DNA of 64,000 bases from an uncultured bacterium (lineage in GTDB: Bacteria > Patescibacteriota > JACMRA01): assembly GCA_963784355.1 (NCBI GenBank), contig CAWAQU010000007.1, forward strand, positions 32,001 through 96,000, written 5' to 3'. This document shows positions 24,735-36,155 of the stretch, in pieces. A program made the position numbers and the translations under genes. Position 1 is the stretch's first letter. Every line of letters begins with the position of its first letter. The notes under the pieces were generated by a model. It was not told the DNA's origin, did not search any database, and was given only the letters and a program-made list of their open reading frames with translations.

Positions 24735-25454
24735 TTAAGCAGATTGGTTTGTAATTTCAGGCTTTAAACTTATGATAGCAAGGAACATGGCCGCTTCAAA
24801 CAATAAACCAATTATTAAAACAAATATAAACCAGCTTAAGATATCTTGAGAACCGAATAATGCAGTAAGTACAATAATTGCAAAATATATCTCTTTTCTC
24901 TTTGACTTTAAAGTACTGGCTGAAACAATTTTCATTTTAATAAGACCAAATACAACTGTAGGTATTTGAAAAAACAAAATTGTGAATAGTGCGAGTGAAA
25001 AAACAAAGTTAGAGTATTCTGTTGAGGTAATTAAAAAACTAGTATTTTTGGGAGCGAAGTTGATTAAAAAGTCAAATGTGCTAGGAATTAAAGAAAAATA
25101 TGCATAGACCAGTGCTATAACTGTAAGGATTAGAGTACTTCCGCTATAATAATAAATTAACTTTTTTTCTTTTTCATTAAGTGCTTGAGCAATATAGCCC
25201 CAAAATATACTTACCAGAATAGGTAGAGTTATAATAGCGCCGGACAATACAACAACTTTAATCACAAAATTAAAGCTATCAGCCGGGGACAAAAAGTGAA
25301 GACTAAGGCCTTTACTTCTTAATGGCATTGTAAAAATATCTATCAGTCTATCAGTATTAAAAGCAGCTATTAGGCTACCAAGTCCCCAAACTATAGCTAT
25401 TTTTATTATTATTTTTTTTAAATCGTTTATATGCTCCCAAATATTTTCAGCCAT
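24735..25454 (-). CDS. tatC: Twin-arginine translocase subunit TatC
   Basis: IWEHINDLKK, LSPADSF, ALNEKEKK, FQIP, LFE motifs; 6 TM. Confidence 0.88.
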   Translation of the reverse strand: MAENIWEHINDLKKIIIKIAIVWGLGSLIAAFNTDRLIDIFTMPLRSKGLSLHFLSPADSFNFVIKVVVLSGAIITLPILVSIFWGYIAQALNEKEKKLIYYYSGSTLILTVIALVYAYFSLIPSTFDFLINFAPKNTSFLITSTEYSNFVFSLALFTILFFQIPTVVFGLIKMKIVSASTLKSKRKEIYFAIIVLTALFGSQDILSWFIFVLIIGLLFEAAMFLAIISLKPEITNQSA

Positions 25455-25669: not shown

Positions 25670-28069
25670 TTATAATCCTGCTTTATCCAGACGACCCTGT
25701 AATGCTTCAATAACCTGGTCTTGTTTTTCTAACAAACTCTTCTGTTCCTTTACTGCCTCGACTAAAGCTCCAACCAAACCATTGTAATTAACTGATTTAG
25801 TTTGATCTTTATCAGCTGCTGTTTTAACTGCTTCTGGAAATATTTTTTCTACGTCTTGAGCTAAGAGTCCGATTTGAGTAGATGTATCTTCACCATGATT
25901 TTCAGGATTTTTCCAGGTGTAGGTTACTCCTTTAAGAGAAGCAATTTTATCTAAGGCTGAAGTAATTGGTTTGATATTAGTTTTTAGCCTTTCATCAGAG
26001 TTTGGAGTAATAGTTCCAGTAGCTAAAATATTACCTACTACGTGAAGTTTTTCGGTAGGAGCCTCAGTTCCAATACCAAATTTTCCATCTGGAGTAATTG
26101 TAGGTTGCGCGCGCAGGTAAATAATACGAGAAGACGTTCCCCAGCTTACTCCTGGTCCTAACTCTGGTGCGTGCCAAGCTACATATAAGGGTTGTCCTGC
26201 TGAATTCCAACCTGTTGCATATTTTGTAATTGCAATATCTCTTACTGAATTAGCAGCTTTTTGGAATTTACACCATACCTCATAAAGGTTAGATGTATTG
26301 GTTTGACCATTACAAGTAACAATATCTTCAGTAGATTCAAACTCACAACCATAAAAGGTGATTGATCCACCCCAAGCTGTAAACAATGCAGCTTTATCCG
26401 ATCTAGGAGATAGGGGGCGAGTATCGTTAGCACTTTCAACTACCTTCACACTTTCTAAATTAAAATATGCATAATCCCTTACCAGTACTCTAGAAACCTC
26501 CCGGTAAATTCCATTAAGGGAGCCAACATATTGTTGCATATCAAATGTGTAAGTTGCATTCTTAGTCATTTTGATTACAGGCATGGATCCACTTTGCTCA
26601 GGATTTTTCCTAATGTACAAATATTGTTCAGGAGATAAATCAACAAAAGTATTCCAGGTGTACTCAGAATTAGTTTTTAAATACACTGTTAGTATAGCAT
26701 ATTTTTTTAAAAGCTTATTGATTTGTAAACCGAGATCCGTAGCTGTATCGTTAATAATTACTAATTTACTAGCCCATCTGGATTTGAGAAAATCAGCACT
26801 ACTATTTAGGCTAACAATAGGAGCTCTTCCTTTAGTAATACTTGCCAAGTTGCCTATATCAATATTTGCTTCACTGCTGATACCAATAGGGCTCATGATG
26901 CCACTGTATGAAGTTTGGGAACTATAGGAATTACTATCATCCCATATCGTCAGACCGTTATTTGATTTATATATCTTATATTGGGTACCGGCTGGAATAT
27001 TTTGCTGGTAATTAAAAGGAGAATCAACGATAACTTCAGTATCAGAGTTAATACTCACAATACGGCGCGTGGAATAGATTACCCCTGCATCAGTAACTTT
27101 TGCTCCAGGACTAGTAAACCATGGAGTAGTATCTGTGTTTAATAGTACTTCTATAGTATCACCAATTTCTACTTCGCTTAAAAATTTAGTACCTGCACCA
27201 ATGACTTTTTCCCATGATGTACTTACTGTACCAGAGACGTTAGGATTACTTTCAAGATTGAATTCCAATCCACTATTAGATACAGGCTCTCCAACAGATA
27301 AATTACCTGATGCACCAACAACAACTTTGCTTTTACCGTCAAATCCTTCAAATCCAGCAACAATGCCGGTATAGGTAAAGGCTCTGGCAGTACTATATCC
27401 ATTTGGAATATATTCATAGGCTGAGTTAGTTACATTTAAATTCCACTCACTTTGTTTATCGGATCCGTAATTACCAATCAAGCCGCGTGACATTTGCCCT
27501 GTACTTCCATTTAAGGAAATAAGTTGGGTAGTTTGATTAGAGATTACTATTAAATAACCAGCTTTTAATTGATTAAGATTATTGCCACTGATGTCTGCAC
27601 CACTTGTAGTAATTGTACCAGGTCCTGTAGCTTTGGTGCCATAAAATGGTTGATTAATAAAAGCTTCAGTGTTACTAATCACTTTTGTAATAATTCTAGA
27701 CTGTCCACCAGAGGTGATTACTGCTCCAGGCTGCAATTCTTCAACAAACTTTGTGCCCGTACCAATCAGTTTGATATCATCAGAAGTAACTTGTCCTGTT
27801 CCAGTACGCTGGTTTTGGATACTTTCCGCACGTTTTGTTGAATCAAAATTAACCCACTGGGTTCCGCTCCAGCGTTCAATCTTTCCAGTGTCGGAATTTA
27901 TTCCAGTAAGACCTTCGTTATCGGCTCCAAGTCCGGTTGGCCTATTAGTAATTGACCAGATGTTGATACCACCTTTATTTGGATCACTAATTTGTTTTAA
28001 ATAATCGTTTAAGATTTGTCCCCAGTTTCCATTGTCTTGACCGGGAATTGGTAAGCGTTTTGTTGGCAT
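25670..28069 (-). CDS. Tail-fibre-like adhesin with C-terminal intramolecular chaperone (peptidase S74)
   Basis: N-terminal RLPIPGQDNGNWGQILNDYL; repeated GxGTKF beta modules; FGIGTEAPTEKLHVVGNI; SDERLK...GLLAQDVE...VNYNGL S74 signature; no signal peptide. Confidence 0.85.
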   Translation of the reverse strand: MPTKRLPIPGQDNGNWGQILNDYLKQISDPNKGGINIWSITNRPTGLGADNEGLTGINSDTGKIERWSGTQWVNFDSTKRAESIQNQRTGTGQVTSDDIKLIGTGTKFVEELQPGAVITSGGQSRIITKVISNTEAFINQPFYGTKATGPGTITTSGADISGNNLNQLKAGYLIVISNQTTQLISLNGSTGQMSRGLIGNYGSDKQSEWNLNVTNSAYEYIPNGYSTARAFTYTGIVAGFEGFDGKSKVVVGASGNLSVGEPVSNSGLEFNLESNPNVSGTVSTSWEKVIGAGTKFLSEVEIGDTIEVLLNTDTTPWFTSPGAKVTDAGVIYSTRRIVSINSDTEVIVDSPFNYQQNIPAGTQYKIYKSNNGLTIWDDSNSYSSQTSYSGIMSPIGISSEANIDIGNLASITKGRAPIVSLNSSADFLKSRWASKLVIINDTATDLGLQINKLLKKYAILTVYLKTNSEYTWNTFVDLSPEQYLYIRKNPEQSGSMPVIKMTKNATYTFDMQQYVGSLNGIYREVSRVLVRDYAYFNLESVKVVESANDTRPLSPRSDKAALFTAWGGSITFYGCEFESTEDIVTCNGQTNTSNLYEVWCKFQKAANSVRDIAITKYATGWNSAGQPLYVAWHAPELGPGVSWGTSSRIIYLRAQPTITPDGKFGIGTEAPTEKLHVVGNILATGTITPNSDERLKTNIKPITSALDKIASLKGVTYTWKNPENHGEDTSTQIGLLAQDVEKIFPEAVKTAADKDQTKSVNYNGLVGALVEAVKEQKSLLEKQDQVIEALQGRLDKAGL

Positions 28070-28810: not shown

Positions 28811-29569
28811 TTACTTTATCTTTATATTGTTTACGCTTTTGTTCCTATTTTTTGACACAAAGAACATTATTCCAAGAACGCCTATAAATAACAAACCTAA
28901 TAATAATATTGACCCTCCTCCTGTCCTCACCGTATCTAATATGGGTTGAATTTTGGCAACATTAACTGTGCTAGCAGTATTTACTAACTCACCATTACCT
29001 AATTTAGCTTTTACAGGTATGGATTGTCCTGCAGTACTTCCTGTACTTACGTTAGTACATACAATATTGTTATTCTCAAGTGTGCAGTTATTACTTAAAT
29101 TTGCGTCACCTATTGATATTCTTAATGGATTGGATGGATCAAGTGTTTTACCTGCGGGTAATTGACCTGTACAAGTAGTCGTTGTATTTACTACTAAATT
29201 ACTACCACAAGTGAAAACTAGAGTTGAAAGGTCCGCATCAGTTATGTAAACATTGCAGTCTCTATTATAAAAACTTTGATTATATTGGCCACAGCCATAA
29301 CCAGAAATTACAGATTGATTGGCACCTGCATTTTCAAGTTGCTTGTAATAAAAAAATCCGCCAAAAGCTCCTAATATAATTGTTAGTAAAATGAAAAAGG
29401 AAACAGAAGTTTTATTCTTTTGCCAATATTGTTTCATTTTTGGAGTTAAGCTTAGGGCCTTTTGTTTCAACATATCAACAAAGAGTAAGGAAGTTGAATC
29501 TTTTTTTGACTTATTTTGGTTGCTTTTTAGCGATTTTTTTAAATCTCGCTTTGGATTTTCACTTTTCAT
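28811..29569 (-). CDS. Surface protein with N-terminal TM, SGYGxxxY motif, Cys-containing Ig-like domain and sortase-like C-terminal signal
   Basis: SGYGCGQYNQSFY after TM; C-terminus TVRTGG + hydrophobic helix + KNRNK. Confidence 0.7.
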   Translation of the reverse strand: MKSENPKRDLKKSLKSNQNKSKKDSTSLLFVDMLKQKALSLTPKMKQYWQKNKTSVSFFILLTIILGAFGGFFYYKQLENAGANQSVISGYGCGQYNQSFYNRDCNVYITDADLSTLVFTCGSNLVVNTTTTCTGQLPAGKTLDPSNPLRISIGDANLSNNCTLENNNIVCTNVSTGSTAGQSIPVKAKLGNGELVNTASTVNVAKIQPILDTVRTGGGSILLLGLLFIGVLGIMFFVSKNRNKSVNNIKIK

Positions 29570-29652: not shown

Positions 29653-29847
29653 TTAATTTTTATCTTTATTTATAGTTTTCTCAGTATTACTGCCTAATGA
29701 TTCTTGAGTATCAGCAAGCTCTTTTTTAAAAGATTTAAATGCTTTACCTAAGCTTCCTGCTGTTTCTGGTAATTTATCTTTACCAAAGAATACTATAGCT
29801 AGAAAGCCTATAATTAGTAGTTCTGGTATACTTGGTCTTGGGAACAT
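29653..29847 (-). CDS. tatA: TatA/TatE family translocase subunit (copy 2)
   Basis: ELLIIGFLAIVFFGKDKLPETAGSLGKAFKSFKKE; ATG 29847 matches copy 1. Confidence 0.9.
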   Translation of the reverse strand: MFPRPSIPELLIIGFLAIVFFGKDKLPETAGSLGKAFKSFKKELADTQESLGSNTEKTINKDKN

Positions 29848-29870
29848 AATAAACACTTAATTAAATTATT

Positions 29871-30041
29871 TTATATCCCATATGGTGTTTGTCCATAACC
29901 GGAAGTTGATTTAGATTTATCTTTTTCAAGATTTTTACTAAATAGTGTATTGATACCGCCGGTAGCAAAAACTACAAAGAACCCGGTTAAGATTTTCAAA
30001 AAACTTCTTCTGCTTATTTTTTTTGTTTGTGTGCTTGACAT
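29871..30041 (-). CDS. Twin-arginine signal micro-protein (56 aa, not in ORF track)
   Basis: MSSTQTKKISRRSFLKILTGFFVVFATGGINTLFSKNLEKDKSKSTSGYGQTPYGI; perfect S-R-R-x-F-L-K motif plus h-region, between two tatA genes. Confidence 0.88.
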   Translation of the reverse strand: MSSTQTKKISRRSFLKILTGFFVVFATGGINTLFSKNLEKDKSKSTSGYGQTPYGI

Positions 30042-30070
30042 AAATATTTGTTTTTTGTTTGTGTGCTTGA
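30019..30070. repeat. 20-bp direct repeat at the start of the twin-arginine micro-gene
   Basis: TTTTTTGTTTGTGTGCTTGA at 30019-30038 and 30051-30070. Confidence 0.85.
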
Positions 30071-30077
30071 TTTATTA

Positions 30078-30317
30078 TTACTTAGCTAACTCTTTTGCAG
30101 AGTCTGCATTAATGCCTGCTTCTACTTTACTGTTATTTGATTTAGCTTCATTGATTTGATGTCCTAATGATTCTTGAGTATCAGCAAGCTCTTTTTTAAA
30201 AGATTTAAATGCTTTACCTAAGCTTCCTGCTGTTTCTGGTAATTTATCTTTACCAAAGAATACTATAGCTAGAAAGCCTATAATTAGTAGTTCTGGTATA
30301 CTTGGTCTTGGGAACAT
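30078..30317 (-). CDS. tatA: TatA/TatE family translocase subunit (copy 1)
   Basis: Same TM-FG-amphipathic helix pattern with a longer C-tail. Confidence 0.9.
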   Translation of the reverse strand: MFPRPSIPELLIIGFLAIVFFGKDKLPETAGSLGKAFKSFKKELADTQESLGHQINEAKSNNSKVEAGINADSAKELAK

Positions 30318-30369
30318 AATTGTATATTGTTATTTGTTTTTGTTAGTGTAAATTTACACCTATAGTAAT

Positions 30370-30400: not shown

Positions 30401-33400
30401 TTACTGTATTTTTACAGTCTTCTCTTGAGAAAAGCTTATACTATCAAGAGTTTTCAGAGATTGTATTGTGGATTTAGGGGATTTGAACTCTCCTTTATTT
30501 ATAACTCTTGCATAAAATACGATTGGTCCCTTACTCTCTTTACCAATACAAAAGCTTGTTTTTTGATTGTCGGTACTATATGGGTACCAGACTTCTTTGC
30601 TGTAAACCCATGCATCTCCGGGTGTTTTTGAGGTAGTTTTTAAGCCTGCAGGTAAATAGATAGAGGCTTCATAACAACTATTGTCGATTTTAGATTGATC
30701 TGCGACATAGTTAGCCTCTACTTTTACTAAATCAGCATCATTTAATGAATTTGTTTCCTTATCATTTTGATAAAATTTTAGATCCAAATTTAAATCTTTA
30801 TTGTTGGTAATGTCTTTGATTGGAGTTTGATAATTTGTAACAATACCTAATTGTCCGCTAATGACTTTTAAATCTAATTTAGCTAGGTCCTGTGAGTTTA
30901 TTTCAATGCTATAACTCTGGTTGTTTTCCAATTTTTTGGAGATATTTTGTTCGTTTTGTTTGAAATTAAATTCAACTTTTTGAGGTTTTTGATAATTTAG
31001 AATTGATTCAATGGTTTCAAGCTCAAGTCCGTAATAAATATTAGTTTTGGGTTGGTTAGCTAAATAGTATCGATATAGGTTTTTTGACTGATCCTCATTT
31101 AATTTTGCTCCAAGCAGGCTTTCAAGAAGAGTGTAATAGCTAATTTCATCAGGACTTTCTCCTATTTTTAAGCTAATGGACCTATCTTCCTTGATTTGAT
31201 ATTTGTTGAGTAAATCAGTGTAAATTTTTCTTGCGGCTTCTTTGTTTTCAGCTTCTATAAAAGCCAGAGCAGTAAATAGTTGCTCTTTAGGTGAAAGGTC
31301 TACAATGCCGGCGACTTCGTTGATTTGATTTAAAGCGTTGTCTTTTAGTTTACTTAAACCATACAATGCAATAATTTTACGTTCTCTAGACTCGTTTGGA
31401 TCAGTAATTACTTTATTTAAATAACTTTTTAGGGTTTCATTTTCAAATTTGTTTTTGCCTATTCCAATTGCATAGACACTTGTTTCCAGGTCTGGTGAGC
31501 TGTAAGGATAAATGGCCCAACCATTTGAAGGATTTTGGTAAAGTGTGTAGTCATTATTTGAGTTAATTGCGGCACTTTGGGTAAAGTATCGGTTTAAAAA
31601 CTCAGTAGAAATGTCTCTAGCAAGTTTTTGATCTAACCTATCGCCTGACTGATTTTGCAACTCGGTAAGTCTTTGGTAATATTCACTGCTTGTTTGGTTT
31701 TGGAAAGTTAGAGCAAGTTTTGTATTGTCAGAAACTTTGAATTTTTGGAGTTCTTCGGGGGTAAAGTACTTGACTTCAGTTTTAGTAATTTGGGGGCTTA
31801 AAACATTTATTTCTCTGGTTAGATTATCTACTTGATCACCTGATTTCGCTGCAATATTGAATTTGTGTTTGCCGATCGGTAAGTTTGGTAGCTCAAAATC
31901 TACCGGGTTGCTGCCTTTTGATTCAACTATCTTGTTTTTAATGTTTAAACTCTCGGAATTTATCGTGAAATTTACAGACTGATCTGCAGGTAAATTTGTA
32001 CCAAAACCCCTTAGCTTGATAGTCGGTTTGTCATTTTCATAGTAAATATCATTGATTACGGCTGTTGCAAAAAATGGCTGTTTAACATTGATATTAATTT
32101 TCCCAGAATCTGCTTCTAGTTTTTCTGTAATTGCCTCATAAGTAATTCTCCAAGATGTGAGATTATCTGGAAGTTGAAATTCCAACTTAGCTTTTCCTTG
32201 ATTGTCAGCTTTGACTTGTTTAAAGATTGCAGTGTCCAGAAATTTGTCTCTAAGGCTAGTTCCGCCACCGTTACCTTGACCACCATCTCCAGTTTGGCTC
32301 ATAAATACTTTGTGGGAAGCGTGTACAAACTCTAGTCCGGAATATAAATGCTTATATATATCCTCAAGTATATTTGGTTCATTTGGAGAATACTGCATGA
32401 TAGCTTCGTCTACAACTGAGATATTGACATTTGCTTCAATAGGATTATTTTCTTGGTTTTTTACGTCAATATCAAGCTTAACTGTATCTTTTGGTTTGTA
32501 TTCTTTTTTGTCTGGAGTTACGCTGATTTTTAATTTGCGGCTTTCTTTCTCAAATTCTAAGTTCCCAACCCCCGTTATGTTAAAGGTATTACCATCGAAA
32601 TAAACTCCAAGAAGGTTCATATTTGGTACAGAGTTTTCTTCAAATTTTAGTTCAAAATTAGGGTTGTTTTGTAATTTGTAGGATTTTTGACCATTTTGTA
32701 AATAACTTACCAAAAATTGATTTTGTTTGGTTTCAATTAACTCAGGTCCTTCAATCGGTTGTATTTTAAATTTTGCAGTTTCACCAATTTTATATTTTTT
32801 CTCTTCCATTTTTAGTGTGTAAATCATGTCTTTGGCTGTATAACCGCTTCCAGAATTTACTGTGCCGTATAAACCTCTTTTGAATTCAATTGGGCTGCCA
32901 TCTTTGTCTGTGGTCTCAATATTAATGTCAAAATTGTGTGTTGGATCGACCGGGAAATCAAGATTTATAAGTCCCTCTGTATTTGTACTTGGGCTGAAAC
33001 TTTTTTGGCCTACATACACACGGTTGTAACTATAATTATTTACGGTTTTTTTACTGATCAAGTCATAATATTGGCCGCTAACATAGCGCTCATATTTATA
33101 TTCAAAAAGTGTGATTTTTACTTTTTTATTAGCAACTGACACTCCTTTGAAATCTTTATCATCTTTCGCTGTGCCGTTATTTATTTTGCTTAAATCAATT
33201 TCATTAAGTCCGATTTTTATTGTGCCCTTATTTTGTTTAATTTCGGAATTTATATCCACGTAAGTTTTATTATCAAAGTAAAGCACGTTTTGGTATAAAG
33301 CACTATCAAACTCCTCAGAAAGTGCGGGGGTAATAGTTATGTAAGCTTGATTTATTCCATCATTACTCTGATCAGATTTTTTTACTAAGGGTACTTGAAA

Positions 33401-35461
33401 ATTAAATTTGCCCTCTTGGTTTGTTTTTATAATGGGAGTTTGATTATTCCCATAACTATAGCTAATATCAAGATTGTTTACTGGTGTTTCTTCAAAAAAA
33501 CTGGCTTGTCCTCGAATAGTGGCAGATTCACCGGCAAAATAAGCTTTCTTTTCGGGTCCAGCAGTTATTTTATACGAAGGGGCAATAAAGTTTTCTACTC
33601 TAAAGTAATTGGATTTAATGAGGTTATTTTGGGAATCAAAAATGTCTAGAATGTAATTTCCGGTGGTTGCATTATCGATTATAAAGTCAGAATTAAATAT
33701 ATTCTGTTCAGTTTTCAAGTTTTTGCTGATAATTTCAACTTTTTTATAACTCATGACGGAATAGTCTTGTTTACTAATCACAGCCTTGATTTCCTCTGAA
33801 TTTTTTGCGTTTACTCGGTTTTTAAGTACGCCCCAAAATTGAATTTTGTCGCTAGGCCTATAAATTGATCTGTCTGAATATAGATGACTCCAATAATCTT
33901 GGCTTTGATCGGTTGAGTAAATATTGAGGTTTTCAGTTCTTGTTTTAATTAAAATAAGTCTTTGATCCTCTGAAGTAATATTATAAAAATATATACTATC
34001 TTGAATTTTGGGAAAAATAGCTATACCCTGATCATTAGATGTAAAAAACTTATCTGAATTTGCCACTTGGATTTTTGCATTTGCTGCGGGAGATTTGGTA
34101 GTTAGATTTTGTAACCAGATTAGATTTTCAGTTTTAGTTTCCTGTATAAAACCGACTAAATTGGTAATCTGCAAAATTGACTGTACTTTTTTGCCGTTTG
34201 ATTCCACCTCAAGTAGATAAATACCTTTTTCTAATCCTTTTGTTGTATCAATATATTGTTCACTAGGTGTTGTTTTGGTAATAGTGTAATTTTGTGAACT
34301 TACTTTGTTTAGTTCTGTTGTATTTGGATAGAAAGTAGTAGGTTGGAAATTTTGCCAGTTATTGAAATTGCTGATGTAATTATTTAAGGTTGTGTTTATT
34401 TGTTCTTCAGACTTGAAATTGTAGATACTAACAGTGGTTTTAAGGTCTTCAAAGGTACTAAAAACCGGTACCACGATTTGCTCTGCAGGTTTGTATTCAA
34501 TAAATGTATTAATTAAACTAAATTCTTTATACTCCGGATCATCATTAATTGTTTGAAACTGAAATAAATAATCTTGAGCTAATTTTCCTGAATTATCTTT
34601 AGTAGTCAGCCCTTGTTTGATTTTTACAGTGTATACTGTATTTTTCTCCAGATTTTTTGGAATGAAAACTGCTACACGGCCATTTCTTTTAAAAGTGCCT
34701 TCAACTTTTGGTGTAATCTCAAAAAACTGATCTATGTCATTGTAACTATCTGTGTTAAATACCACTTCAATGCCTGTGTTTGCCGGTACACCATTTACTT
34801 TATTTGTAGGTGTAGTACCAAGTATTCTAAATTCATCTTTTACTTGATAGGCCCAACTCAAATTTTTAGCGCTTGTTACGTCGTTTTTGTCAGGGATTAC
34901 CTTTAATTCAAACTTAACTACTTCATTGGCAGTTGGTTTTTGAGTTAGATTTAATTCATAGTTAGTATCACTATTTTTTTTCAGTTCATAGGGTAGGGAA
35001 GGAGTAAGTTTCAAATTATCTTTAATCTGTTTTTCAGTTATGCTGTTTGCTGAAGTTATTGTATATGTAGAGTTAGAATCAACTCCCAAGTTTGTTTTTG
35101 TATTTGGTTTGATTTCGATCTCTTGAGCGCTGGCGTTGATTGGAGAGAAAGGATTAATAATATTAGCTAAGTTGTTTGTAATATTTTTACCTGCTCCGGC
35201 TTGACTAAGCACTAAGGCAATTAATATTCCGACTACAACTAGACTACTTGCAAATCCTAAACCTAACACAATAATTCTATTTGAGAAGAGGGATTTCAAA
35301 TTTTCTCGGGTTTTTGCAAATATATTTTGGGTTTTCAGATTAGTTTTTACAAATTGATTTAGACTGCTTTTCTTAGATTTTAGATAAGATGTATTTTTTT
35401 CAAATACAGGTTGCAAGGATTCTTCCTGTAAGTCTTCTCTATTTGGTAAAAATTTCGACAT
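30401..35461 (-). CDS. Membrane-anchored alpha-2-macroglobulin family protein with N-terminal Ig-like (Big_5/SbsA-like) domains
   Basis: SDRSIYRPSDKI (MG2), YKPKDTV, SVVDEA, LRDKFLDTA, LPDNLTSWRI, YARVINKGEF. Confidence 0.9.
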   Translation of the reverse strand: MSKFLPNREDLQEESLQPVFEKNTSYLKSKKSSLNQFVKTNLKTQNIFAKTRENLKSLFSNRIIVLGLGFASSLVVVGILIALVLSQAGAGKNITNNLANIINPFSPINASAQEIEIKPNTKTNLGVDSNSTYTITSANSITEKQIKDNLKLTPSLPYELKKNSDTNYELNLTQKPTANEVVKFELKVIPDKNDVTSAKNLSWAYQVKDEFRILGTTPTNKVNGVPANTGIEVVFNTDSYNDIDQFFEITPKVEGTFKRNGRVAVFIPKNLEKNTVYTVKIKQGLTTKDNSGKLAQDYLFQFQTINDDPEYKEFSLINTFIEYKPAEQIVVPVFSTFEDLKTTVSIYNFKSEEQINTTLNNYISNFNNWQNFQPTTFYPNTTELNKVSSQNYTITKTTPSEQYIDTTKGLEKGIYLLEVESNGKKVQSILQITNLVGFIQETKTENLIWLQNLTTKSPAANAKIQVANSDKFFTSNDQGIAIFPKIQDSIYFYNITSEDQRLILIKTRTENLNIYSTDQSQDYWSHLYSDRSIYRPSDKIQFWGVLKNRVNAKNSEEIKAVISKQDYSVMSYKKVEIISKNLKTEQNIFNSDFIIDNATTGNYILDIFDSQNNLIKSNYFRVENFIAPSYKITAGPEKKAYFAGESATIRGQASFFEETPVNNLDISYSYGNNQTPIIKTNQEGKFNFQVPLVKKSDQSNDGINQAYITITPALSEEFDSALYQNVLYFDNKTYVDINSEIKQNKGTIKIGLNEIDLSKINNGTAKDDKDFKGVSVANKKVKITLFEYKYERYVSGQYYDLISKKTVNNYSYNRVYVGQKSFSPSTNTEGLINLDFPVDPTHNFDINIETTDKDGSPIEFKRGLYGTVNSGSGYTAKDMIYTLKMEEKKYKIGETAKFKIQPIEGPELIETKQNQFLVSYLQNGQKSYKLQNNPNFELKFEENSVPNMNLLGVYFDGNTFNITGVGNLEFEKESRKLKISVTPDKKEYKPKDTVKLDIDVKNQENNPIEANVNISVVDEAIMQYSPNEPNILEDIYKHLYSGLEFVHASHKVFMSQTGDGGQGNGGGTSLRDKFLDTAIFKQVKADNQGKAKLEFQLPDNLTSWRITYEAITEKLEADSGKININVKQPFFATAVINDIYYENDKPTIKLRGFGTNLPADQSVNFTINSESLNIKNKIVESKGSNPVDFELPNLPIGKHKFNIAAKSGDQVDNLTREINVLSPQITKTEVKYFTPEELQKFKVSDNTKLALTFQNQTSSEYYQRLTELQNQSGDRLDQKLARDISTEFLNRYFTQSAAINSNNDYTLYQNPSNGWAIYPYSSPDLETSVYAIGIGKNKFENETLKSYLNKVITDPNESRERKIIALYGLSKLKDNALNQINEVAGIVDLSPKEQLFTALAFIEAENKEAARKIYTDLLNKYQIKEDRSISLKIGESPDEISYYTLLESLLGAKLNEDQSKNLYRYYLANQPKTNIYYGLELETIESILNYQKPQKVEFNFKQNEQNISKKLENNQSYSIEINSQDLAKLDLKVISGQLGIVTNYQTPIKDITNNKDLNLDLKFYQNDKETNSLNDADLVKVEANYVADQSKIDNSCYEASIYLPAGLKTTSKTPGDAWVYSKEVWYPYSTDNQKTSFCIGKESKGPIVFYARVINKGEFKSPKSTIQSLKTLDSISFSQEKTVKIQ

Positions 35462-35474
35462 ATTTGAGAGATAA

Positions 35475-36155
35475 TTAAATTTTTTGTTGGTTTTTGGTTA
35501 TATTTGTAGATTCAGTAGAATTAAAAAATGATGGTTTTGCTGGTAAAGTTGTATTTTGCTCAGTAATATAAACTTCTGTTTCGCTTGAATTTGTTGTGTT
35601 TTCGGACTGTTTAAAACTAATCCATAATTCCGTACAGCCTGACTTTAGCTTAGAAAATGATCTTTTTAGTTTTTGGCGCACTGTTGCTGATTTTAAATTG
35701 TATTTTATACCGATTTGGGTACTGTTTTTATTATCAATAATCGATTCTGCAACAATATTATAATCTTCACCTGTAAGTTGTTTTTTACAACATTCTATTA
35801 GCTGTTGAATTTTGGCTTCATAATGCTCGCTATATTTATTTTCATTTTCTTCAACACTTTCAAAATGTGCGTAGTCTTGAGTCTGAAAATCTGTATTTTC
35901 TTCAAGTATTACAGTAAAAGGTGAGCGATTTTTGTTATCTATAAATTTGTATTGTTGATTTTTAGCAGTTTGCCAGATAAATCCCTTTGGATTCTCCACA
36001 TTTTCGGCTAGGAAAAAAGCGGTAAGAACATTGGAAGTAAGGTCTTCTACATCTTGCTGATTGTTTAGGCGCCTGTAGAAATATCCATAAACTAAAGGAT
36101 ACCAATAATCCCAAGCCTCACTGATATCTTTTTTTGAAATTTCAGAGTCGAGCAT
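35475..36155 (-). CDS. ECF-type RNA polymerase sigma factor
   Basis: VYGYFYRRL..QQDVEDLTSNV, FIWQTAKN (region 2); QIG...SATVRQKLKRSFSKL (region 4). Confidence 0.85.
   Translation of the reverse strand: MLDSEISKKDISEAWDYWYPLVYGYFYRRLNNQQDVEDLTSNVLTAFFLAENVENPKGFIWQTAKNQQYKFIDNKNRSPFTVILEENTDFQTQDYAHFESVEENENKYSEHYEAKIQQLIECCKKQLTGEDYNIVAESIIDNKNSTQIGIKYNLKSATVRQKLKRSFSKLKSGCTELWISFKQSENTTNSSETEVYITEQNTTLPAKPSFFNSTESTNITKNQQKI

Follow-up and report, generated by a model that had tools for sequence, protein, structure and literature searches.

A 56-residue protein with a Tat-type signal and a conserved YG tail as a candidate adaptor for export or display of tagged fiber-like proteins in Patescibacteria

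We describe a small open reading frame (ORF) and its gene neighborhood in a 64,000-nucleotide stretch (the window) of contig CAWAQU010000007.1, positions 32,001 to 96,000, from an uncultured bacterium of the phylum Patescibacteria, also called the Candidate Phyla Radiation (CPR; assembly GCA_963784355.1; 1.14 Mb on 13 contigs, 33% GC, 81% complete). The ORF encodes a 56-amino acid protein, here called the small protein, and lies between two tatA genes of the system for twin-arginine translocation (Tat) and 4.4 kb from tatC. All genes around it are on the minus strand (Table 1). They include a gene for a 799-aa fiber-like protein whose N-terminus carries a conserved tag (the N-tag), and one for a 252-aa protein with a similar motif to the tail of the small protein, which we call the YG-protein. 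A first-pass annotation made from the letters of the window had picked out this ORF as little more than a twin-arginine signal with a short tail, and had proposed that it acts in trans as a detachable signal peptide or adaptor.

Table 1. Features of the locus, with positions in the window unless a locus handle is given.
Feature	Position	Strand	Description or basis
Small-protein ORF, 56 aa	29871..30041	(-)	ATG start; stop codon 29871-29873; n-region, Tat-like motif, one helix, basic linker, YG tail
Tat-type consensus motif S-R-R-S-F-L-K, residues 10-16	29994..30014	(-)	read from sequence
Uncharged h-region / transmembrane (TM) helix, residues 17-34 (I17-F34), G28-G29 kink	29940..29993	(-)	sequence, hydropathy, AlphaFold2 (AF2)
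Conserved C-terminal YG tail S-G-Y-G-Q-T-P-Y-G-I, residues 47-56	29874..29903	(-)	family conservation
tatC	24735..25454	(-)	PF00902, E 1.7e-39
799-aa fiber-like protein	25670..28069	(-)	PF13884 Peptidase_S74 at C-terminus, E 5.6e-22; no signal peptide; N-tag 67.6 bits
N-tag, fiber residues 1-35 (M-P-T-K-R-L-P-I-P-G-Q-D-N-G-N-W-G-Q-I-L-N-D-Y-L...)	27965..28069	(-)	alignments
YG-protein, 252 aa	28811..29569	(-)	K-rich N-terminus, one TM, S-G-Y-G-C-G-Q-Y-N..C, Cys-containing repeats, V-R-T-G-G-G + TM + basic tail
tatA copy 1	29653..29847	(-)	PF02416, E 3.2e-14; ATG at 29847 taken; listed ORF starts GTG at 29856
tatA copy 2	30078..30317	(-)	PF02416, E 7.7e-14
1686-aa alpha-2-macroglobulin-like protein	30401-35461	(-)	A2M_BRD, MG2, Big_5, A2M; N-terminal TM; directly upstream of cassette
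ECF-type sigma factor	35475-36155	(-)	precedes alpha-2-macroglobulin-like gene
YG-proteins with LPXTG-like ends	window 28811-29569; L068:8756-10069; L073:10308-12863		

The small protein begins with a polar, lysine-rich segment before residue 10 and runs through the Tat-type motif into an uncharged stretch (I17-F34, which includes G20, G28, and G29). A charged linker (S35-T46; four lysines, one glutamate, and one aspartate) then leads to the tail (S47-I56), which directly precedes the stop codon. The h-region is moderately hydrophobic, with a best 15-residue Kyte-Doolittle window of 1.83 (family median 2.11), and is followed by basic residues in the c-region; both are features of a Tat signal, as is the consensus in the n-region. 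It stays below the cut-offs of the curated Tat-signal models, and neither it nor nine class relatives have an A-x-A signal peptidase site; the sole small-x-small candidate, A-T-G-G, lies within the helix. An AF2 model built from a 123-row family alignment places helices at residues 11-26 and 29-36 and coil at residues 37-56. The approximately 22 residues left after the helix are thus modeled as coil, with a predicted local distance difference test (pLDDT) of 53-57, and the small protein has no folded mature domain. The architecture given in the first-pass annotation, including the moderate h-region, the missing cleavage site, the charged linker with its terminal SGYGQTPYGI, and the lack of a folded passenger, is thereby borne out. 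No match to the TatA/B/E family PF02416 was found in the small protein at E ≤ 0.01.

That the small protein is the only protein of the window with a twin-arginine signal, as had also been noted, holds and extends to the genome: a permissive scan of all 13 contigs gave no other S/T-R-R-x-F-L-type signal except in one ORF on contig C13. The first ~5 kb of C13 have 61-62% GC versus 31-35% for the rest of that contig, and are probably a chimeric join or contamination. We therefore rejected this ORF as a second Tat substrate, since it falls within this probably chimeric stretch, where GC stands at 61% against 33% genome-wide.

The small protein belongs to a widespread family. A profile from nine relatives, which were found by six-frame searches of related genomes, was searched against 1.84 billion representative proteins at E ≤ 1e-3; it scores the window protein at E 2.3e-19 and gave 129 matches, 125 of them proteins of 47-106 aa aligned end to end. 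Four long proteins with several short matching stretches were dropped (P0044, P0060, P0074, and P0078), and the truncated P0014 and P0018, with a 41-residue extension, were also left out of the 123-row alignment. The layout common to members runs from a basic pair plus xFL(K) through one helix and a basic linker to a C-terminal [YF]G-xxx-[YF]G, after which one residue usually remains; 92 of 117 parsed members end exactly one residue past the last glycine. F14 is invariant in the alignment and M1, G50, Y54, and G55 are at least 90% conserved. The basic pair varies (RK in 47 of the parsed members, RR in 43, KR in 13, KK in 6, and others in 8), so the tail is better conserved than the twin arginine. 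The "exact Tat consensus" of the first-pass annotation is thus correct for the window protein and is a property of its lineage rather than of the family.

The uncharged run has a median length of 18 residues among the 123 members, and in 118 of them a lysine or arginine follows within eight residues, a position at which basic residues have been described as Tat "Sec-avoidance" residues (PMC6708511). At E ≤ 0.1, the Pfam model TAT_signal matches 27 of the 123 and the Rieske Tat-signal model UCR_Fe-S_N weakly matches 8; of the 33 families matched, the 25 shown do not include PF02416. No model in Pfam, NCBIfam, or PHROG covers the small protein beyond its signal, nor does any domain-of-unknown-function family in Pfam. 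Where sources name members at all, they are called "hypothetical protein" and once "secreted PhoX family phosphatase", which looks like a mis-annotation. A single-sequence word-index search with the window protein, a method blind to this family, found the query alone. In a protein atlas the nearest clusters are unnamed 64-75 aa proteins of Verrucomicrobiota and Saccharimonadota, which we take as a lead only. One small gene (L015, G004:C15, 1492-1760) is split by a frameshift just ahead of the YG tail; an intact 57-aa version is present in the protein library (P0025), and the split gene is an assembly error or a pseudogene.

The first-pass annotation had named the N-terminal domain of the neighboring fiber as a possible binding partner, and this region proves to be a conserved tag of ~35 residues, common to otherwise unrelated signal-less fiber-like proteins, that co-occurs with the small protein and TatC. 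Its shared sequence is M-x-R-L-P-I-P-G-x-D-D-G-x-W-G-x-I-L-N-x-Y-L...D-G-T-L-K (summary motif RLPxPGxDGxWGxxLNxYL), with L6, P7, W16, G17, L20, N21, and G33 (window numbering) invariant in 86 tag sequences. In BLAST comparisons most group members match the window fiber over the first 22-27 residues only, and two relatives in G007 over 72-74. The bodies behind the tag differ, among them right-handed beta-helix/pectate-lyase, S74 chaperone, glycine-rich, and PHROG tailspike or tail-fiber families; such beta-helix, pectate-lyase, S74, and tail-fiber modules of phage tailspikes fold and trimerize in the cytoplasm. The window fiber, the only tagged protein in its genome (G000), is matched at its C-terminus alone by PHROG tail-fiber families, and Pfam finds in it the Peptidase_S74 intramolecular-chaperone domain alone; no match in Pfam or PHROG covers the tag itself. 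The tag begins at residue 1 or 2 in 84 of 99 hidden Markov model (HMM) matches, and a hydrophobic 15-mer scoring above 1.6 occurs in the first 100 aa of just 1 of 91 tagged proteins, which indicates that tagged proteins have no signal peptide. AF2 of the 60-aa N-tag alone gives a weak model (mean pLDDT 63; residues 1-15 extended, 16-28 helical), and two complex predictions of the 60-aa N-tag with the small protein, run without controls, scored 0.00, which we count neither for nor against a complex.

Phyletic counts come from 401 genomes sampled evenly across the phylum. The class of the window has only 27 species genomes in the genome collection used. The small protein was called present where a match had E < 1e-8 within an open frame of at most 130 aa, which kept 19 of the 37 genomes that match at E ≤ 1e-3. 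Among the 18 dropped (G015, G029, G032, G041, G057, G083, G125, G129, G163, G171, G241, G246, G295, G316, G328, G336, G348, and G356), 17 match more weakly than E 1e-5 and G057 at 1.8e-8; most of these matches lie inside frames longer than 120 aa, some with stops or as short fragments. TatC is rare in the phylum, scoring above cut-off in 24 of the 401 genomes. It is present in 18 of the 19 genomes with a clear small protein and in 18 of the 19 with the N-tag, which occurs in up to 18 copies per genome; 18 of these 19 N-tag genomes also have the small protein, and 17 genomes have all three. Five TatC-positive genomes have neither tag nor small protein, and among the 377 TatC-negative genomes only G012 (68% complete) has either. 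Retaining all 37 small-protein genomes leaves the association visible (20/37 TatC-positive, versus 4/364 for the others). Of the 26 genomes in the window's own family, 10 have both TatC and the small protein, 2 have TatC alone, 1 (G012) has the small protein alone, and 13 have neither. The congener G001 (88% complete) has none of TatC, small protein, and tag, so the set behaves as an accessory cassette.

The three components are also linked in gene order, which agrees with the expectation of the first-pass annotation that such small ORFs would stand beside tatA or tatC. In at least 11 genomes drawn from several families, tatC is the immediate neighbor of the small gene (G004, G007, G008, G025, G151, G187, G247, G261, G288, G326, and G386). 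Clustering the proteins of 16 small-gene neighborhoods returned TatC (12 neighborhoods), TatA, and a group of 15 large proteins from 9 neighborhoods, the window's 799-aa protein among them. A scan of public genomes with the tag gave 374 relatives, from which the best 78 loci were kept regardless of Tat; within 6 kb, 20 of these 78 have a small-family gene and 14 have tatC. These loci are mostly from Saccharimonadia, with some from Levyibacteriota or other Patescibacteria and a few labeled Gordonia, Galbitalea, Salinibacterium, Dormibacterota, Verrucomicrobiia, Abditibacteriaceae, or Sulfuriferula; related cassettes occur in the records labeled Microbacteriaceae and Abditibacteriaceae, and whole-genome searches found the small protein in four of five genomes labeled non-CPR. 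The order tatA-tatC-small-tag recurs in L088, L126, L136, L142, and L149. In 10 cases the N-tag gene begins at most 150 nt downstream of the small gene, and in L142 and L149 stop and start overlap.

TatC itself differs in step with the small protein at the site expected to bind it. In the cryogenic electron microscopy structure of Escherichia coli TatBC with MdoD, the first signal arginine contacts E15 and F94, the second forms a salt bridge with TatC E103, and the consensus phenylalanine sits in a pocket of F94, L9, H12, and L13 (PMC13323110). Aligned to the solved chain 9dzz_A, whose numbering fits that source, the window TatC has an intact signal-binding site, with H8, D11, Y87, and E96 at the positions of E. 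coli H12, E15, F94, and E103, and the stretch from F94 to E103 is gap-free in all cassette TatCs. The H12 and F94 equivalents are kept in 25 of 25 cassette TatC rows and the E15 equivalent is acidic in 24, matching the near-invariant first basic residue and the invariant phenylalanine of the small proteins. Where the second basic position of the small protein is arginine, the E103 equivalent is glutamate in 8 of 9 cases (eight TatCs of the window's class plus L088); where it is lysine, glutamine, or threonine, the equivalent is glutamate or aspartate in none of 22, among them G025, a genome of the window's own class in which a K-K pair goes with glutamine. TatC-only genomes retain glutamate in 5 of 5. 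This covariation is suggestive, and such a pattern would be expected if each TatC directly recognized its own small protein.

A motif resembling the tail recurs in a fourth set of genes. YG-proteins at 10 or more loci have a signal peptide or N-terminal TM followed by Y-G-x-G-x-Y-G, often with a cysteine, at or near the mature N-terminus; the window YG-protein (motif S-G-Y-G-C-G-Q-Y-N) is matched by no Pfam or PHROG family and has relatives at the same position in G007 and G004. Their bodies are of three types. One has cysteine-containing repeats that end in an LPXTG-like sorting signal (V-R-T-G-G-G in the window, L-P-R-T-G-G in G007, and L-S-R-T-G-A-G in G004), a TM, and a basic tail; in the window genome, the only sortase match (C1:9-200) sits at a contig edge, is truncated, and scores 23.9 bits, which is below cut-off. 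Another has proline- and serine-rich stalks with a C-terminal TM (L134 and L142). The third consists of two Saccharimonadia-type proteins (L121:3509-5170 and L130:3574-5499), each with a signal peptide and an N-terminal YG motif, that align by blastp over more than 430 residues and adjoin tatA, small-protein, and N-tag genes. Read by eye, their C-terminal sequence appears to be that of a sensor histidine kinase, and the YG motif might serve in sensing as well. In L142 (Abditibacteriaceae) and L149 (Levyibacteriota), the YG gene lies just upstream of and divergent from tatA-tatC-small-tag, so that the same five-gene layout is found in two phyla. A 75-aa ORF divergent from tatC in G386 (L064:8225-8452) carries A-Y-G-A-G-D-F-G..C near its N-terminus, has a single C-terminal TM with a basic end and no signal peptide, and looks like a tail-anchored YG protein.

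We propose, with a probability of roughly 0.5, that the 56-aa protein is a signal-bearing adaptor, probably a signal-anchor, serving a dedicated Tat cassette for export and display by carrying tagged cargo through it or tethering that cargo. An adaptor is the most economical account of a protein consisting of hardly more than a Tat-type signal and a conserved 8-residue tail, a specialized TatC, tagged fibers that have no signal and would fold before export, and small-protein and tag genes that are tightly spaced or overlap. The n-region motif ([ST/D]-[RK]-[RK]-x-F-L-K) and helix would dock into TatC like a Tat signal peptide, and the YG tail, while still cytoplasmic, may hold the N-tag of an already folded signal-less fiber (in the window, the 799-aa protein). 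TatA and TatC could then move the tail and its non-covalently attached cargo across the membrane, a form of hitchhiking. The adaptor would remain in the membrane as an N-in/C-out anchor, as expected from its lack of a signal peptidase site, and the fiber could either stay tethered to it or be handed to Sec-exported, wall- or membrane-anchored YG-proteins with the look-alike motif YGxGxYG. The binding of tail to tag, Tat-dependent transport, the final topology, and the hand-over step are thus predictions drawn from the gene content and motifs described above. Of the first-pass interpretation, partly supported here, the trans-acting signal or adaptor is largely borne out by this genomic context and remains the most economical reading; "detachable" is doubtful, an anchor being more likely where no peptidase site is present.

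Several other accounts of the small protein deserve weighing. If it were itself Tat-exported or membrane-inserted and its YG tail served as an extracellular peg for fibers that leave by another route, the absent peptidase site would fit, because it makes a signal-anchor fate likely; so would the similar motif on the mature N-terminus of Sec-type anchored proteins, even two apparent histidine kinases, which suggests an extracellular function of the motif. Co-occurrence fits such an anchor as well as it does a carrier. We nevertheless consider a pure anchor unlikely: the fibers lack signals themselves, the neighborhoods examined show no other exporter linked to them, a bare 20-residue tail would need no translocase for folded proteins, yet 18 of the 24 TatC-positive genomes carry the small protein, and overlap or tight spacing of small-protein and tag genes typically marks partners meeting in the cytoplasm. 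A permanent, signal-peptide-like partner of TatC, either TatB-like or with a gating or regulatory role, would account for the small gene being the most frequent neighbor of tatC, for TatA + TatC systems of the window type in which no separate TatB is recognizable, and for the covariation of the TatC site with the small-protein motif, and degenerate pairs (RK, KK, and RA) are easier to accept in a resident subunit than in a transported substrate. Cargo would then be recognized by something else. This role seems improbable for a protein with neither an amphipathic helix of the TatA/B type nor a PF02416 match, which is present in 2-4 copies in several genomes, some of them beside individual tagged genes far from tatC (G386, G326, and G247), an arrangement better suited to adaptors linked to cargo than to a core subunit; it would also give the strongly conserved YG tail no role.

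Small size and a conserved extreme C-terminus are likewise what one would expect of a secreted or modified peptide precursor, in which an N-terminal leader is removed and the YG peptide set free to act, independently of the fibers, as a signal or in wall binding, and the small-x-G-G within the helix (A-T-G-G here and S-x-G-G in relatives) might in principle serve a peptidase as its cleavage site. In the small-gene neighborhoods examined, however, neither a modifying enzyme nor a protease or peptide exporter is conserved, and the three-way link with the N-tag and TatC and the look-alike motif on anchored proteins would go unexplained, making a precursor very improbable. That the ORF is a chance frame or non-coding spacer between duplicated tatA genes can practically be dismissed. 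It is short and AT-rich and no Shine-Dalgarno motif precedes it, but such motifs stand ahead of just 28 of 404 long ORFs in this genome, so that their absence is no evidence against translation; conservation at the protein level across the phylum and beyond, together with the fixed stop position, argues that the small ORF is a genuine gene.

A number of observations weigh against an adaptor that works through the Tat pathway. The Tat-signal model TIGR01409 has no match across the whole genome at E ≤ 10, and PF10518 scores the small protein at 15.2 bits, short of its cut-off of 22.7. The twin arginine is not conserved family-wide, given the 43 RR pairs of 117, the six KK pairs, and the eight single-arginine variants; two copies labeled Microbacteriaceae (actinobacterial) read D-R-A-x-F-L, with a single arginine, and a KK pair blocks Tat export in model systems. 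Both flanks of the helix are net positive across the family (median +3 on each side), so that the topology is not readable from charge. In L088, an RR small protein is paired with a TatC that has arginine at the E103 equivalent, and with about two independent changes, this one exception, and related genomes that are not independent, the covariation amounts to a suggestive pattern, not a statistical one. Tagged proteins reach 2722 aa, and trimers of such a protein would be far above usual Tat cargo sizes. G023 has TatC and a small protein and no tag, G015 has TatC and 18 tags with a small-protein match that is weak and contains stops, and in a Gordonia genome with the N-tag the small protein was not found at E ≤ 1e-3. 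Among 50,697 phage records, 6 carry the tag as well, all of them from Streptomyces phages; in phage BRock, the one record examined, the tagged gene has a non-structural, tRNA-rich setting and no small YG gene next to it.

We considered whether the window fiber could be a prophage tail fiber whose tag serves as a phage baseplate adaptor. This was rejected in view of the rarity of the tag in phage records, the non-structural setting of the BRock copy, the absence of any PHROG or Pfam match to the tag, and the scatter of tagged genes within genomes (up to 18 per 1-Mb genome). In BRock (L153, 5001-5738), an N-tag variant with W-D in place of W-G heads a protein annotated as collagen-repeat-containing; the tag probably marks the true start, given that the annotated one overlaps a tRNA-Lys.

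Tat hitchhiking is, to our knowledge, known only for a few enzyme complexes whose folded subunit carries the signal. Such co-export systems include the hydrogenase HybO/HybC and the dimethyl sulfoxide (DMSO) reductase DmsAB. Others are PaoABC (PMC4273604) and the glucose dehydrogenase dependent on flavin adenine dinucleotide (FAD), whose gamma subunit escorts one specific enzyme and consists, in 168 aa, of a 47-aa signal and a 121-aa five-helix domain (PMC6719666). The arrangement described here is similar in that one partner has a Tat signal, a signal-less, pre-folded partner would ride with it, and the genes are adjacent, although here the pairing is predicted from genes alone, through co-occurrence and synteny. 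Unlike these escorts, which have a folded mature domain, the small protein has a "mature" part of ~22 unstructured residues ending in an 8-residue motif. Its putative cargo is a set of many unrelated fiber-like proteins with a portable N-tag (up to 18 per genome), and it has no sequence similarity to the known escorts or to any Pfam family beyond its signal.

Parallels to other Tat proteins are partial as well. The "formate dehydrogenase region TAT target" family TIGR02811 (at most 70 aa) likewise consists of tiny proteins in which a Tat signal is joined to a short conserved motif at the C-terminus. No other NCBIfam model matches the window protein, and at 17.8 bits, far below the cut-off of 48.45, this match covers the signal only. 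Its C-terminal motif is different, and the neighbors of the small gene are fiber-like and include no formate dehydrogenase. Uncleaved Tat signal anchors are known from Rieske proteins, alongside Tat-inserted membrane proteins (PMC10924467). The small protein resembles the Rieske anchors in combining a Tat-type motif with a probably uncleaved helix that would be an N-in/C-out anchor, and differs in lacking the cofactor-bearing folded domain that Rieske proteins carry. The PhoD-TatAdCd system of Bacillus subtilis is a dedicated Tat system encoded with a single substrate. Like it, the cassette is a minimal TatAC system with tatA and tatC in an operon with a client; unlike it, the client would be an adaptor plus a family of tagged proteins, and the TatC site is remodeled, in that all 22 lineages with a residue other than arginine have lost the E103 equivalent.

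More tentatively, doubt slightly outweighing confidence, these genes may form an undescribed export and display pathway: a mobile five-part cassette of tatA, a tatC with a co-evolved site, a signal-only mini-adaptor, any number of tagged tailspike- or fiber-like proteins, and YG anchors or sensor kinases. It would be the main reason why CPR/Patescibacteria keep Tat, and would provide a route for folded, phage-like adhesins and depolymerases onto the surface of an episymbiont. No description of the small protein, tag, or cassette was found in the literature searched; supplementary tables, which lay outside the search, may list Tat genes or substrates. Of the sources consulted, one merely lists TatA/TatC for Microgenomatia, Paceibacteria, and Saccharimonadia (PMC9166423), another reports tatBC in one Saccharibacteria genome with four TATFIND matches, two of unknown function (PMC6031116), and a term search of a third returned no mention of Patescibacteria (PMC13673990). 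If the proposal is correct, it would represent a new logic of Tat targeting, in which the signal peptide is supplied in trans by a protein of 50-70 aa, and would explain why a minority of ultra-small CPR keep Tat even though no ordinary Tat substrate was found in the one genome scanned. It would also reveal a large unannotated set of surface fibers (tailspike, pectate-lyase, and S74) as candidate tools of episymbionts for host attachment or envelope degradation. A system this compact, comprising five genes together with a 35-residue tag and a tail of 8 residues, could, should it operate in this way, be usable for exporting folded proteins.

The DNA of the locus has some further features. Cassette genes are preceded by A-rich leaders of the ACAAAAA type instead of Shine-Dalgarno motifs. 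A perfect 20-nt direct repeat places codons 2-8 of the small ORF (30019-30038) also in the spacer 32 nt upstream (30051-30070). The 5' parts of both tatA genes, with the 3 nt upstream, form a perfect 158-nt direct repeat (29693-29850 and 30163-30320), and the two TatA proteins are identical over their first 52 residues and diverge after, which suggests a recent duplication or gene conversion.

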